Below are positions 5,836-54,471 of a stretch of 64,000 nt of DNA, one piece after another. The stretch lies in NCBI GenBank assembly GCA_021469345.1, contig GCA_021469345.1_3049.1; one strand, written 5' to 3'. Each line of letters begins with the position of its first letter. Position 1 is the stretch's first letter. Below the pieces are notes generated by a model that ran no database searches, was not told where the DNA came from, and was given only the letters and a program-made list of their open reading frames with translations. This DNA is from a phage. The translations under genes were made by a program, and so were the position numbers.

Positions 5836-5865
5836 GTTTACAAGTTGGCAAGGTTATGGTATAGT
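5836..5865 (+). promoter_or_regulatory. early promoter (GTTTAC-N18-TATAGT)
   Basis: GTTTAC 5836-5841, TGgTATAGT 5857-5865. Confidence 0.5.
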
Positions 5866-5997
5866 AATCTTGTCAACTGCCAAGGAGAAGAGAATGAAAG
5901 TTTTGTTTGTTGTGTATGTGATGATTCAATATAATTACCCAATGTTTACTTATAATCTGGTGAACAACATTATTGATATTATTCAAAGGAGTATGTA

Positions 5998-11112: not shown

Positions 11113-11142
11113 GTTTACAAGACTGTTCCTCTGTGGTACTAT
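11113..11142 (+). promoter_or_regulatory. early promoter (GTTTAC-N18-TGgTACTAT)
   Basis: GTTTAC 11113-11118; TACTAT 11137-11142; shares GGTACTATACAACTATCAAC with other copies. Confidence 0.55.
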
Positions 11143-11170
11143 ACAACTATCAACTACGGAGGAACACAAA

Positions 11171-17322: not shown

Positions 17323-17461
17323 ACCCTGGTGGGCGGTTAGATGGGAAACTGTAGAGCCAGAGCCGGAAGAACCGGTTTACACTGATGAAGAAACAGTATA
17401 TAATGAACCTACAATAAATGACTTAATTGATATGGAGATGGGACATGATTACAGTAGATAA
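17294..17461 (+). CDS. hypothetical small acidic/Pro-rich ORF
   Basis: ATG 17294 in third frame, overlaps both neighbours; weak RBS. Confidence 0.25.
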   Translation: MKNLISFGVKPWWAVRWETVEPEPEEPVYTDEETVYNEPTINDLIDMEMGHDYSR

Positions 17462-17930
17462 GTGGTTTAGAATTAATCGTGCTGATACAGGGCTGTGTAA
17501 TTACTGGCCGGAACTTAGTGCAGGTACTGTCTTTAAGGTTCGTGAACTTGCAAAAGAATGTGAAGATGATATAGAGCCTGATACTGGAATTATTGAAATT
17601 GAACTTTCCGACGGAAAGATTATTAACATCTATGATAAGCCAATTACGTATTGGTGCTTGTGGAATACTGAATCAGTCGCAACTGGCGAAATTGAAGAAG
17701 TCGTAGAACGAGTTGATCAAGCTATTCATAAACCTAAAGCCGATTTTCAAGGTGAACGTATTTCATACGCATTAGCTAAATTAGCTGCACAAGAAAATAA
17801 CGATGGCTATGAAGGTAACCTGATGCAAGCTGCCGCAGAGTACATTGAATGGCTTGAAACTCAAATTTCTTTTTCTGACCAAAAGATTCGGCAATATAAG
17901 CGATTGAATCAAATGTTTTACAATACTTGA
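17445..17930 (+). CDS. pin: Pin-like protein (host Lon protease inhibitor position)
   Basis: 161 aa from ATG 17445; length and position between nrdC and 49 as in T4. Confidence 0.6.
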   Translation: MITVDKWFRINRADTGLCNYWPELSAGTVFKVRELAKECEDDIEPDTGIIEIELSDGKIINIYDKPITYWCLWNTESVATGEIEEVVERVDQAIHKPKADFQGERISYALAKLAAQENNDGYEGNLMQAAAEYIEWLETQISFSDQKIRQYKRLNQMFYNT

Positions 17931-17941
17931 AAATAATAAAT

Positions 17942-17966
17942 ACCCTTATCTATTTAAGGTAAGGGT
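17942..17966 (+). promoter_or_regulatory. hairpin overlapping the gene 49 Shine-Dalgarno region (terminator and/or translational control)
   Basis: ACCCTTA...TAAGGGT inverted repeat; AAGG of the second arm is the only SD-like element before ATG 17972. Confidence 0.5.
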
Positions 17967-17971
17967 TTATT

Positions 17972-18445
17972 ATGTTATTGACTGGCAAATTATATAAAGA
18001 AGAAAAACAGAAATTTTATGATGCACAAAATGGTAAATGCTTAATTTGCCAACGAGAACTAAATCCTGACGTTCAAGCTAATCACCTCGACCATGACCAT
18101 GAATTAAATGGACCAAAAGCAGGAAAGGTGCGTGGATTGCTTTGTAATCTCTGCAATGCCGCAGAAGGTCAAATGAAGCATAAATTTAATCGTTCTGGCT
18201 TAAAGGGACAAGGTGTTGATTATCTTGAATGGTTAGAAAATTTACTTACTTATTTAAAATCCGATTACACCCAAAATAATATTCACCCTAACTTCGTTGG
18301 AGATAAATCAAAGGAATTTTCTCGTTTAGGAAAAGAGGAAATGATGGCTGAGATGCTTCAAAGAGGATTTGAATATAATGAATCTGACACCAAAACACAA
18401 TTAATAGCTTCATTTAAGAAGCAGCTTAGAAAGAGTTTAAAATGA
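17972..18445 (+). CDS. 49: endonuclease VII (Holliday junction resolvase)
   Basis: 157 aa; Cys cluster CLICQ...C...CNLCN; matches remembered T4 gp49. Confidence 0.95.
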   Translation: MLLTGKLYKEEKQKFYDAQNGKCLICQRELNPDVQANHLDHDHELNGPKAGKVRGLLCNLCNAAEGQMKHKFNRSGLKGQGVDYLEWLENLLTYLKSDYTQNNIHPNFVGDKSKEFSRLGKEEMMAEMLQRGFEYNESDTKTQLIASFKKQLRKSLK

Positions 18446-20259
18446 CAATTGAAAAAGAAATTGAAGGATTGATTCATAAAACTAATAAAGACCTTTTAAA
18501 CGAGAATGCTAATAAAGATTCTCGTGTTTTTCCAACTCAACGGGACCTTATGGCTGGTATTGTGTCTAAACACATTGCCAAAAATATGGTCCCGTCTTTT
18601 ATTATGAAAGCACATGAAAGCGGAATTATCCATTTCCACGATATTGATTATTCCCCTGCTCTTCCATTTACTAATTGTTGTTTAGTAGATTTAAAAGGAA
18701 TGCTTGAGAACGGGTTTAAGCTCGGTAATGCACAGATTGAAACTCCTAAATCAATTGGCGTTGCTACTGCAATTATGACACAAATTACTGCACAGGTTGC
18801 TTCCCATCAATACGGCGGAACGACTTTTGCTAATGTAGATAAAGTACTTTCTCCTTATGTTAAACGCACCTATGCAAAACATATTGAGGATGCAGAAAAA
18901 TGGCAAATCGCTGATGCGTTGAATTATGCTCAATCTAAAACAGAAAAAGACGTATACGATGCATTCCAAGCTTATGAATATGAAGTAAATACTCTCTTTA
19001 GTTCAAACGGACAAACGCCTTTTGTAACAATTACATTTGGTACGGGAACTGACTGGACTGAACGAATGATTCAGAAAGCAATTCTGAAAAATCGTATTAA
19101 AGGCCTTGGTCGCGATGGGATAACTCCTATTTTCCCTAAGCTTGTTATGTTCGTTGAAGAAGGTGTTAATCTTTATAAAGACGATCCAAACTATGATATT
19201 AAGCAGCTTGCTCTAGAGTGTGCAAGCAAAAGGATGTATCCTGATATTATTTCAGCTAAGAACAATAAAGCTATCACTGGTTCATCTATTCCTGTTTCTC
19301 CGATGGGATGCCGTAGTTTCTTGAGCGTATGGAAAGATTCGACTGGTAATGAAATTCTTGATGGACGTAATAATCTTGGTGTTGTAACATTGAATCTTCC
19401 TCGCATCGCGTTAGATTCTTATATTGGAACACAGTTCAATGAACAGAAATTTATCGAATTGTTTAATGAACGAATGGATTTATGTTTTGAAGCTTTGATG
19501 TGTAGAATTAGTTCCTTAAAAGGAGTTAAAGCGACTGTTGCTCCTATTCTTTACCAAGAAGGTGCATTCGGGGTTCGTCTTAAACCTGATGACGACATAA
19601 TTGAGTTATTTAAAAACGGTAGAAGTTCAGTGTCCCTAGGATACATTGGTATTCACGAATTGAATATTCTTGTCGGTCGTGATATTGGACGAGAAATTTT
19701 AACTAAAATGAATGCTCATCTTAAACAGTGGACTGAAAGAACTGGGTTTGCTTTTAGTTTGTATTCTACTCCTGCTGAAAACCTGTGCTATCGCTTCTGT
19801 AAACTTGATACCGAAAAATATGGAAGTGTAAAAGATGTTACCGATAAAGGCTGGTACACTAACAGTTTCCATGTTTCAGTAGAAGAAAATATCACTCCAT
19901 TTGAAAAGATTTCTCGCGAAGCACCGTATCATTTCATTGCAACAGGCGGTCACATTTCTTATGTTGAACTTCCTGATATGAAAAATAACCTAAAAGGTCT
20001 TGAGGCTGTATGGGATTATGCTGCACAACATTTAGATTATTTTGGTGTTAACATGCCGGTAGATAAGTGTTTTACGTGCGGAAGTACTCATGAAATGACT
20101 CCTACTGAAAATGGATTTGTTTGTTCTATCTGTGGAGAAACTGATCCTAAAAAGATGAACACAATAAGAAGAACATGTGGTTATTTGGGAAATCCGAACG
20201 AACGCGGATTTAATCTCGGCAAAAATAAAGAAATCATGCATAGGGTTAAACACCAATGA
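18442..20259 (+). CDS. nrdD: anaerobic ribonucleoside-triphosphate reductase, uninterrupted
   Basis: 605-aa continuous ORF; C-terminal Cys-rich tail and glycyl-radical region; no intron insertion. Confidence 0.95.
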   Translation: MTIEKEIEGLIHKTNKDLLNENANKDSRVFPTQRDLMAGIVSKHIAKNMVPSFIMKAHESGIIHFHDIDYSPALPFTNCCLVDLKGMLENGFKLGNAQIETPKSIGVATAIMTQITAQVASHQYGGTTFANVDKVLSPYVKRTYAKHIEDAEKWQIADALNYAQSKTEKDVYDAFQAYEYEVNTLFSSNGQTPFVTITFGTGTDWTERMIQKAILKNRIKGLGRDGITPIFPKLVMFVEEGVNLYKDDPNYDIKQLALECASKRMYPDIISAKNNKAITGSSIPVSPMGCRSFLSVWKDSTGNEILDGRNNLGVVTLNLPRIALDSYIGTQFNEQKFIELFNERMDLCFEALMCRISSLKGVKATVAPILYQEGAFGVRLKPDDDIIELFKNGRSSVSLGYIGIHELNILVGRDIGREILTKMNAHLKQWTERTGFAFSLYSTPAENLCYRFCKLDTEKYGSVKDVTDKGWYTNSFHVSVEENITPFEKISREAPYHFIATGGHISYVELPDMKNNLKGLEAVWDYAAQHLDYFGVNMPVDKCFTCGSTHEMTPTENGFVCSICGETDPKKMNTIRRTCGYLGNPNERGFNLGKNKEIMHRVKHQ

Positions 20260-24821: not shown

Positions 24822-24997
24822 AAGATGAACACCAGACTTCTGAAATAGATTATAATAAAATTCGTTCCTCTAGAGAGGAAATGATGAGACGCTTTAAAGA
24901 GTCTCATGATAAAGCTAAAGCAGAAGGAACTATAACATATAAGCGCATAAAATTTAGAAGCTCTAATGAGCCTCTGTATGGTGTATTATGTGGATAG
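24806..24997 (+). CDS. hypothetical small protein
   Basis: 63-aa ORF. Confidence 0.4.
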   Translation: MVATVKDEHQTSEIDYNKIRSSREEMMRRFKESHDKAKAEGTITYKRIKFRSSNEPLYGVLCG

Positions 24998-41280: not shown

Positions 41281-41309
41281 TTTACAAGCTGACGAGACTA
41301 TGGTATAGT
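41280..41309 (+). promoter_or_regulatory. early promoter (GTTTAC-N18-TGGTATAGT)
   Basis: GTTTAC 41280-41285 overlapping gene 41 stop; TATAGT 41304-41309. Confidence 0.55.
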
Positions 41310-41338
41310 AGTCTTGTTGGTTAAATGAGGAGATTTTT

Positions 41339-46003: not shown

Positions 46004-46011
46004 TATAAATA
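46004..46011 (+). promoter_or_regulatory. late promoter core TATAAATA upstream of soc
   Basis: Exact TATAAATA about 30 nt upstream of soc ATG. Confidence 0.55.
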
Positions 46012-46042
46012 CACCTGTAATTAAACAATAAAGGAGTTTATT

Positions 46043-46279
46043 ATGGGTGGTTTCGTTAATATAAAGACCTTTACTCATCCAGCAGGTGAAGGCAAAGAAG
46101 TTAAAGGTATGGAAGTTTCTGTTCCGTTTGAAATCTATTCTAACGAGCATCGTATTGCAGATTCTCATTATCAGACCTTTCCTTCTGAAAAGGCAGCATA
46201 TTCTACTGTAGTTTCTGATGCAGCTGACTGGAAAACTAAGAATGCTGCAATGTTTACGCCTACAGCAATAGGTGGTTAA
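46043..46279 (+). CDS. soc: small outer capsid protein Soc
   Basis: 78 aa; YQTFPSEKAAYSTV shared with remembered T4 Soc; RBS AAGGAG; late promoter upstream. Confidence 0.75.
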   Translation: MGGFVNIKTFTHPAGEGKEVKGMEVSVPFEIYSNEHRIADSHYQTFPSEKAAYSTVVSDAADWKTKNAAMFTPTAIGG

Positions 46280-48418: not shown

Positions 48419-48449
48419 TGTTTACTTTCCTTTCTAACGATGATATGAT
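48419..48449 (+). promoter_or_regulatory. early promoter (GTTTAC ... TATGAT)
   Basis: GTTTAC 48419-48424; -10 like element 48443-48449. Confidence 0.45.
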
Positions 48450-48475
48450 AGCTTCTGAAGTATACGGAGGCTATC

Positions 48476-49099
48476 ATGATTATTAATCTTGCAGATGTTG
48501 AACAGTTATCTATAAAAGCTGAAAGCGTTGATTTTCAATATGATATGTATAAAAAAGTCTGTGAAAAATTTACTGACTTTGAGCAATCTGTTCTTTGGCA
48601 ATGTATGGAAGCCAAAAAGAATGAAGCTCTTCATCGGCAATTGAATAAAATCATTAAAAAGCATTTAACTAAATCGCCTTATCAGTTATATCGTGGTATA
48701 TCAAAATCAACAGAAGAACTTATTAAAGATTTACAAGTTGGAGAAGTGTTTTCAACGAACAGAGTAGATTCATTTACTACTAGTTTGCACACAGCATGTG
48801 GTTTTTCTTATGTTGAATATTCCACTGAAATAATATTTCGCTTAAAAACTGATAAAGCTTTTAATTATTCTGACCATATCAGCGATATTATACTTTCTTC
48901 TCCTAATACTGAGTTCAAGTACACGTATGAAGATACTGATGGGCTAGATTCAGAGCGTACTGATAACTTAATGATGATTGTGCGTGAACAAGAATGGATG
49001 ATTCCAATTGGAAAGTATAAAATAACTTCTATTTCAAAAGAAAAATTACACGATTCATTTGGAACATTTAAAGTTTATGATATTGAGGTAGTTGAATGA
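48476..49099 (+). CDS. modB: ADP-ribosyltransferase ModB
   Basis: 207 aa; R (YRG), S-x-S and E (QEWMIP) catalytic triad pattern. Confidence 0.8.
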   Translation: MIINLADVEQLSIKAESVDFQYDMYKKVCEKFTDFEQSVLWQCMEAKKNEALHRQLNKIIKKHLTKSPYQLYRGISKSTEELIKDLQVGEVFSTNRVDSFTTSLHTACGFSYVEYSTEIIFRLKTDKAFNYSDHISDIILSSPNTEFKYTYEDTDGLDSERTDNLMMIVREQEWMIPIGKYKITSISKEKLHDSFGTFKVYDIEVVE

Positions 49100-53392: not shown

Positions 53393-53422
53393 GTTTACTT
53401 CCTCAGTTAGTTGTGGTATTAT
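53393..53422 (+). promoter_or_regulatory. early promoter (GTTTAC-N18-TGGTATTAT)
   Basis: GTTTAC 53393-53398; TATTAT 53417-53422. Confidence 0.5.
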
Positions 53423-53449
53423 AACACCATAGCTACTGAGGATAATAAA

Positions 53450-53960: not shown

Positions 53961-54398
53961 ATGATTAAAAATAATGCTGTTTATCAATTGAAAAAATTTG
54001 ATGAAATTAAGAATTTTTCGGTACTGTCTAATACAGCTCATAATAAGTTTTGTGAACTTCTTGGTTTAACTGGCGGATATCCTTTTACTGTTATTAGTGT
54101 TAATAGCGGAATTCTTATCGATATGATGTATATTGAAATTAGAAACTATTATGGAATGGTATCACCGCTTATTATTTATGAAAAAGATTTTAGTCTATTG
54201 ACAGAAATTGAAAAACCTGAAGATCCAACTGATCTACTGTGTAAGGCAGTTTATATTCGTCGTCCATTCGCGAATCCTGTGGGTGGATGGGTGACTGATC
54301 AGTGGATTGAAGATGGTGTTGAACTTCTGAACGTAGTTCATGCTGGAGAGTACTCTGTAGTTCCTCGCAGCGCAGTGATTAATGTTCGTGTAAGCTAG
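53961..54398 (+). CDS. hypothetical protein, paralog of the following gene
   Basis: 145 aa; C-terminal DQWIEDGVELLNVVHAGEYSVVP. Confidence 0.55.
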   Translation: MIKNNAVYQLKKFDEIKNFSVLSNTAHNKFCELLGLTGGYPFTVISVNSGILIDMMYIEIRNYYGMVSPLIIYEKDFSLLTEIEKPEDPTDLLCKAVYIRRPFANPVGGWVTDQWIEDGVELLNVVHAGEYSVVPRSAVINVRVS

Positions 54399-54427
54399 TT
54401 TACAAACTCTTGGGACCAGAGTATAAT
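54398..54427 (+). promoter_or_regulatory. early promoter (GTTTAC-N18-TATAAT)
   Basis: GTTTAC 54398-54403; TATAAT 54422-54427. Confidence 0.55.
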
Positions 54428-54471
54428 GGTCCCGTGGAGTATAAAATCTTTTTAACAAGTGAGAGATAACT

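Follow-up and report, generated by a model that had tools for sequence, protein, structure and literature searches.

The pin, gene 49 and nrdD region

The DNA analysed here, a stretch of 64,000 nucleotides that we call the window, is that of a T4-type phage (Tequatrovirus). The 1.2 kb around the hairpin that is the subject of this work match 738 phage records, nearly all of them T4-like phages of enterobacteria, with an identity of 98.2% to the best record and of 96.8% to T4. Gene 49 encodes endonuclease VII, an enzyme that debranches DNA for packaging, and is directly preceded by nrdC, three small ORFs and pin, all of which are co-oriented with it (Table 1). Transcripts that read through pin, which has the same orientation, run on into the hairpin. 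The identity of the downstream gene, as proposed in an earlier note on this DNA, is borne out: its product is 100% identical to T4 gp49 and matches the Pfam domains PF02945 (Endonuclease_7) and PF09124 (endonuclease VII dimerisation domain). Furthermore, the 44-nt intergenic region, which runs from the stop codon of pin to the ATG of gene 49, does not differ from T4 at any base.

The T4 GenBank record annotates a nested 49' at the position equivalent to the internal GTG of the window, with the remark 'internal start demonstrated and has its own promoter', and both the protein and the DNA of the gp49' region are conserved between the window and T4. In the window, nrdD is a single uninterrupted ORF of 605 aa, whereas in the T4 record it consists of two joined pieces around a group I intron encoding I-TevII; hence, this nrdD intron is absent from the window phage. 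The ORFs between nrdC and pin have sizes unlike those of T4 49.3 and 49.2.

Within the 3' end of gene 49, we also observed a MotA-box-like TGCTTCA (18354-18360, + strand) together with a TATAAT (18374-18379). Among the entries that bear on this locus, the list of T4 middle promoters in PMC2988021 contains 'PnrdD+ (P49.1)' at coordinate 46440 (printed as 6440), attributed to Barth 1988. This coordinate maps to ~18387 in the window and thus coincides with the MotA-box-like site (18354-18387), so that nrdD has its own middle promoter inside gene 49.

Table 1. Position and basis of the features at the gene 49 locus of the window
Feature	Positions	Strand	Basis
Sigma-70-type promoter-like site upstream of pin, TTTACA-17-TATAAT, 11/12 matches	17376..17404	+	consensus scan only
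pin (protease inhibitor), upstream gene	17445..17930	+	Pfam PF10465 PinA, T4 annotation
Full RNA hairpin	17933..17973	+	MFE fold
Late-promoter-type octamer AATAAATA	17935..17942	+	7/8 match to T4 consensus TATAAATA
Conserved 10-bp core stem, ACCCUUAUCU with AGGUAAGGGU, and 5-nt loop	17942..17966	+	fold, 28 leaders
Late-transcript 5' end as predicted, +1 near A17948, within the 5' arm of the hairpin	17947..17949	+	inferred, -13 to -6 rule
Two tandem Shine-Dalgarno-like UAAGG	17955-17959 and 17960-17964	+	sequence, MFE fold
Gene 49, endonuclease VII, 157 aa	17972..18445	+	ORF list, T4 identity, Pfam
Internal in-frame GTG start, gp49', 105 aa	18128..18445	+	placed by homology to T4 annotation
nrdD, downstream ORF	18442-20259	+	ORF list, T4 annotation, Pfam

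The leader hairpin and the adjoining late-promoter motif

The leader of gene 49 had been described in the earlier note as a stem of 6-7 bp between ACCCTTA (17942-17948) and TAAGGGT (17960-17966). Both stretches are indeed present, complementary and paired with each other, and the 7 bp exist (-6.6 kcal/mol), yet the true length of the stem was understated, as it comprises a 10-bp core and a 7-bp A-U extension. In the core, 17942-17951 pair with 17957-17966, which adds the inner pairs U17949-G17959, C17950-G17958 and U17951-A17957 to the 7 bp and leaves a loop of 5 nt (17952-17956). The outer extension is formed by seven A-U pairs between 17933-17939 and 17967-17973; a 2-nt bulge (17940-17941) separates extension and core in the 5' arm (17933-17939 and 17942-17951), while the 3' arm (17957-17966 and 17967-17973) is continuous. 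The 10-bp core evaluates at -12.9 kcal/mol and the full 17-bp helix at -16.3 kcal/mol; the shorter CCUUA/UAAGG pairing, which had been offered as an alternative, evaluates at just -4.4 kcal/mol.

As regards the initiation region, the AAGG that was taken to be the only Shine-Dalgarno (SD)-like element is one of two, since the UAAGG sequence occurs in two tandem copies. In the MFE fold, the second copy is paired throughout, and the first is paired at A17957-G17959. This second AAGG ends 7 nt before the AUG, and the A and the U of the start codon itself (17972-17973) are paired in the hairpin. The pairing of both UAAGG copies and of the AUG is present in the MFE and centroid folds alike. Neither this second SD copy nor the paired start codon nor the late-promoter motif had been noticed in the earlier note.

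The hairpin is unusually stable for its composition and its surroundings. The MFE of the 60-nt segment 17931-17990 is -16.4 kcal/mol against a mean of -7.9 for shuffled sequences (z = -3.68), and none of 200 dinucleotide shuffles was as stable. When segments of 45 nt were slid along the + strand, 64 of 21,319 (0.3%, at 22 places in 64 kb) reached the same stability. The minus strand of the hairpin region folds at -12.1 kcal/mol, i.e., the sense strand folds better by 4 kcal/mol. An Rfam scan returned no family at or above its gathering score, the only hits, which are due to chance, being ohsC (26.7 bits vs 50) and a plastid intron (19.2 vs 140).

The late-promoter-type octamer AATAAATA directly adjoins the core: its last A (17942) is the first base of the core stem, and octamer and core 5' arm thus overlap by one base. 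Its single mismatch to TATAAATA is at the first base. T4 late promoters have TATAAATA at -13 to -6, where conservation is lowest at the T of -13, a position at which T4-like phages often have A (PMC1524935). Within the 64 kb, AATAAATA occurs in this single copy on both strands together, with 15.8 copies expected from dinucleotide shuffles. The canonical TATAAATA was found 3 times vs 10.7 expected, and the + strand carries three ATAAATA heptamers, the AATAAATA site being one of them. Late-promoter-like octamers are thus strongly depleted across the window, a pattern that is consistent with selection against spurious late promoters in a region of early genes.

A further octamer, TATAAAGA, lies at 17993-18000 (+), 21 nt inside gene 49, and differs from the late consensus by one mismatch; RNA made from it would be devoid of the first AUG and could encode gp49' only. 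We considered it as a second late promoter, for gp49', but the octamer that aligns with it in T4 reads TACAAAGA (in context, TTATACAAAGA); we therefore rejected it as probably without function.

With a late start near A17948, as predicted from the position of AATAAATA, the late transcript would be without the 5' arm, whereas read-through RNA from upstream contains it. RNA starting at 17947..17949 folds at only about -2 kcal/mol. Accordingly modelled, the cost of opening the region from SD to AUG is 12-17 kcal/mol for RNAs with upstream 5' ends (at 17800 or 17411) and 3.7-6.8 kcal/mol for RNAs beginning at 17947-17949. The sigma-70-type promoter-like site upstream of pin is a candidate source of the prereplicative read-through RNA. 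In T4, the middle promoters PnrdC(1) and PnrdC(2) lie upstream of nrdC (PMC2988021), and gene 49 RNA was classed as 'early' by RNA-seq (PMC9697503 Table S2), which means that prereplicative RNA crosses the hairpin. The geometry leads to the same conclusion: as the hairpin core ends 5 nt before the AUG and leaves no room for another promoter, early gene 49 RNA must cross it. The gp49 protein was not detected in the T4 omics data set (PMC9697503). Among the papers searched, there was no recent genome-wide map of T4 transcription start sites or terminators.

Elsewhere in the window, a canonical TATAAATA at 46004-46011 (+) precedes a 78-aa ORF (46043-46279), the product of which we take to be similar to T4 Soc. 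Directly behind this motif stands ACACCUGUAAU, the pairing partner of a AUUAUGGGUGG that spans the start codon of the ORF. The leader folds at -12.9 kcal/mol with the upstream sequence vs -4.0 kcal/mol for an RNA starting after the motif; this soc-like locus (46004-46279) thus has the same gate architecture as reported for T4 soc. Other very stable hairpins on the + strand are located at 853-897, 11122-11166, 24865-24880, 48439-48483 and 53398-53442. In these five, a UUCCUC-type 5' arm stands against an SD-like 3' arm (GAGGA or GGAGG); an ATG is paired as well in the hairpin at 48439-48483, and the one at 853-897 has a sigma-70-like TTGACT...TATAAT inside. They may be further transcript-dependent masks of ribosome-binding sites. 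In addition, long perfect stems at 5836-5880, 41281-41325 and 54397-54441 (+) enclose a T4-early-promoter-like GTTTACA...TATAGT/TATAAT, i.e., a promoter-like sequence embedded in an inverted repeat.

Gene 49 leaders in related phages

A scan of viral contigs with gp49 yielded 44 IMG/VR loci with 50-100% protein identity, which together with the window comprise 28 distinct gene 49 leaders. Each leader was folded independently, and in all 28 a late-type motif is immediately followed by a hairpin. The motif reads TATAAATA, AATAAATA, GATAAATA, CATAAATA, TTAAATA or CTAAATA, and the hairpin starts at its last A or at most 2 bases from it, again in 28 of 28. An AAGG, GAGG or GGA is present in the 3' arm, which either stops 0-8 nt short of the start codon or overlaps with it. 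The core hairpins have energies of -8.5 to -13.9 kcal/mol, while for the predicted late RNAs of the same leaders, the start of which was set 6 nt behind the motif, folding reaches no more than -0.6 to -5.3 kcal/mol. CTAAATA, reported as the late consensus of Aeh1 (PMC1524935), is carried by the Aeh1-type loci (L042-L045) and by phage 133; the motif thus becomes CTAAATA where the late consensus of the phage does.

The sequence of the stem, on the other hand, varies while its pairing is kept. Across the genera sampled, at least 10 different stem sequences were found, all of them complementary, such as CCCUUA with UAAGGG, GGUUCA with UGAACC, AGUUCA with UGAACU, CACUUA with UAAGUG, CUCUUA with UAAGAG, CCUCUAUA with UAUAGGGG, GAGUCAU with AUGACUC and GUCCUAU with AUAGGGC, so that compensatory arm pairs include CCC/GGG, GGU/ACC, CAC/GUG, CUC/GAG and GAG/CUC, among others. 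Covariation was counted on a plain MAFFT alignment of the 28 leaders, fitted to no structure, in which the pairs of the named structure were counted directly. Standard pairs occupy 90% of the cells, a share that drops to 36-48% once the 3' partners are shifted by 1-3 columns. Double compensatory changes affect 5 of the 10 core pairs (54 cells), as many as three or four kinds of pair occur at three positions, and the observed covariation score was reached by none of 500 shuffles. The outer A-U extension is conserved only within the T4-like subgroup. RNAalifold, applied to the MAFFT alignment, recovered only 6 of the 10 pairs, with weak energy, because differences in loop length put four to five sequences out of register.

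Six more distant phages, compared individually and in addition to the 28 leaders, differ in the gene upstream of gene 49 (nrdC, hypothetical genes or a peptidase inhibitor). A related layout is found in five of them, namely Acinetobacter phage 133, ECD7 (Krischvirus), KP15 (Slopekvirus), AS-gz (Tulanevirus) and AM101 (Lazarusvirus), although AS-gz has no hairpin within the leader: there, the stretch behind the motif is paired with the AUG and the first codons. The sixth, the KVP40-like Vibrio phage PG216 (Schizotequatrovirus; L050 270-350), has neither a late-type motif nor a leader hairpin, its best fold being -2.9 kcal/mol, and is the sole gp49 homologue among those examined that has neither. 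In PG216, the gene upstream of gene 49 lies on the opposite strand, so that there would be no read-through RNA to mask. Altogether, the sampled carriers are Tequatrovirus-like phages, Krischvirus, Slopekvirus, Lazarusvirus, Tulanevirus, Aeh1-type phages and Acinetobacter phage 133, irrespective of the upstream gene.

Probable promoter-dependent translation of gene 49 and alternative readings

With these data in mind, we consider it very probable that the hairpin is a translational gate of gene 49 that is set by the promoter from which the RNA is made. Prereplicative transcripts would start at early or middle promoters upstream, in the nrdC to pin unit, and cross the pin/49 junction. Such RNA would hold both arms of the 17-bp hairpin (17933-17973), with the UAAGG elements and the AU of the AUG buried; 30S subunits could then not bind, and full-length gp49 would not be made early. 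Once DNA replication has begun, gp55-RNA polymerase would initiate at AATAAATA (17935-17942), and the late RNA from near A17948, being devoid of the 5' arm, would present an open initiation region from which the 18-kDa endonuclease VII is translated. Promoter-dependent translation, as suggested in the earlier note, is supported by the position of SD and AUG in a covarying hairpin, by the late-type octamer adjoining its core and by the predicted drop in opening cost. For the window phage, we infer the exact late 5' end and the difference between early and late translation from these features, and the assignment of T4 gene 49 to the promoter-gated class is taken from the literature, while structure, rarity, covariation, motif position and the difference in opening energy were observed here. 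The same helix may also attenuate or process early RNA and thereby favour the nested gp49'.

Could the hairpin instead serve mainly to end the prereplicative unit of nrdC to pin, as an intrinsic terminator or attenuator, such that gene 49 is silent early for want of RNA and not through a masked ribosome-binding site? We regard this as improbable. Like intrinsic (rho-independent) terminators, the leader has a stem-loop followed by a U-rich stretch, and a consensus scan, which uses a loose pattern, flags 17942-17966 with 10 pairs, 4 of them G-C, and the tail TTATTATGTT; the 3.5 kb scanned contain five terminator-like sites vs 1.7 expected. Moreover, at least one automated annotation agrees with the scan: the record of phage Lutter labels the equivalent hairpin 'terminator' (L002 1544-1566). 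That of phage fPS-2 (NC_054943) has a 'terminator' among the features at its gene 49 match, which places it at or beside gene 49 only. Unlike in intrinsic terminators, however, the U tract is interrupted (UUUAUUAUGUU) and partly coding, as it consists in part of the conserved Met-Leu-Leu codons, and its conservation is tied to that of the AUG. The stem of many relatives reaches up to the AUG or takes it in, and lacks a U run of its own, e.g., GAGGUGAACUAUG; what is conserved across genera is a late motif with pairing of the SD or the AUG, not a stem followed by a U run. Finally, the early-class gene 49 RNA seen by RNA-seq in T4, where early RNA thus extends over gene 49, argues against efficient termination (PMC9697503). 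The label in the Lutter record is probably an automated mislabel of a translational regulatory hairpin, and partial attenuation may occur besides the masking of the ribosome-binding site.

Even less probable, in our judgement, is that the hairpin is chiefly an element of RNA processing or stability, be it a target of a double-strand RNase or a protector of the 3' end of cleaved pin mRNA, in which case the effect on gp49 would arise from cleavage or decay of the mRNA and not from exclusion of ribosomes. The abstract of Barth et al. 1988 is said to describe the SD of long early transcripts as 'sequestered in a hairpin and/or cleaved', which would favour a 12-kDa product, the shorter late transcripts reportedly being proposed to give the 18-kDa enzyme, and the helix of 17 bp is near the length range of RNase III substrates. 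A processing site, however, does not require the strict juxtaposition of late motif with 5' arm and of SD and AUG with 3' arm that is found in 33 of 34 distinct leaders and that a promoter-dependent switch accounts for, and the outer A-U extension that lengthens the helix is not conserved outside the T4-like subgroup.

That the inverted repeat acts as DNA, be it as a cruciform or as a palindrome bound by a protein, or that it arose by chance in AT-rich intergenic DNA, has next to no likelihood, and none of our results points that way. The repeat does exist in the DNA and endonuclease VII itself cleaves cruciforms, but covariation preserves pairing and not sequence. A U-G wobble, which has no paired counterpart in DNA or on the other strand, persists in 24 of 28 leaders, and the antisense strand folds less well by 4 kcal/mol, which argues that the selected structure is the sense-strand RNA. 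Chance is excluded by z = -3.68, 0 of 200 shuffles and conservation across genera.

A translational gate of this kind is not without precedent. The earlier note had referred to a mechanism described for some T4 late genes; this class is indeed known, and in the passages of two reviews that deal with it, gene 49 itself is listed (PMC3014915, PMC2988022). Uzan and Miller 2010 name e, soc, 49 and I-TevI as genes with a sequestered initiation region (PMC3014915), and Edgell et al. 2010, where they treat the same class, cite Barth et al. 1988 and print '39', apparently for 49 (PMC2988022). That T4 gene 49 is translated poorly from long RNA but well from late RNA goes back, in these passages, to Barth et al. 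1988 (PMC2988022, PMC3014915). The leader hairpin of the window is the same element as that of T4 gene 49 (Barth, Powell, Trupin and Mosig 1988, Genetics 120:329), with identical intergenic region and protein, a hairpin over SD and AUG and a late-type promoter adjoining the 5' arm; there is no difference in the element, only in the surrounding genome (96.8% identity over 1.2 kb, the nrdD intron and the nrdC-pin ORFs).

Four features that characterise the class are likewise found here. The RNA helix includes both the SD and the start codon, the late promoter is placed such that a transcript with the predicted +1 would drop the 5' part of the helix, early or middle genes in the same orientation precede the gene, so that longer prereplicative transcripts read into it, and the stem shows compensatory changes among relatives. 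The leaders of T4 e and soc and the hairpins of I-TevI, I-TevII, I-TevIII, segB and mobE share with gene 49 a late gene embedded in an early or middle unit, a helix that sequesters SD and/or AUG on the long RNA and a late RNA without the 5' strand (PMC3014915, PMC2988022). Their sequences are unrelated to that of the gene 49 leader, and gene 49 adds an internal GTG start with a nested 12-kDa product (T4 annotation).

The promoter-dependent switch of gene 49 is thus already known, and as the element is identical to the T4 one in the reviews, our finding adds nothing as a discovery. In the cited reviews, comparative alignments are shown for the structures of gene e and gene 25, not for gene 49 (PMC3014915), and the covariation reported here may hence be an incremental addition. 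The practical value of the finding is modest: the analysis illustrates that a reader of sequence only can recover a genuine regulatory RNA, and it gives a warning that automated annotation can label the gene 49 hairpin a terminator.

In summary, beyond the switch itself, we suggest tentatively, and with rather less than even confidence, that this arrangement, in which a late motif is followed by hairpin, SD and AUG, accompanies gene 49 in most of the sampled Straboviridae genera, a breadth that may be undocumented. Endonuclease VII resolves branched DNA before packaging (PMC2988022), and, by inference, enzyme made early could cut intermediates that T4 needs for its recombination-dependent replication, both those of recombination and those of replication; translation from late RNA only would therefore make biological sense. 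If the layout is indeed as widespread as suggested, the gene 49 leader would be among the best covariation-supported promoter-gated translational switches, and it would point to strong and ancient selection against the early synthesis of full-length endonuclease VII.
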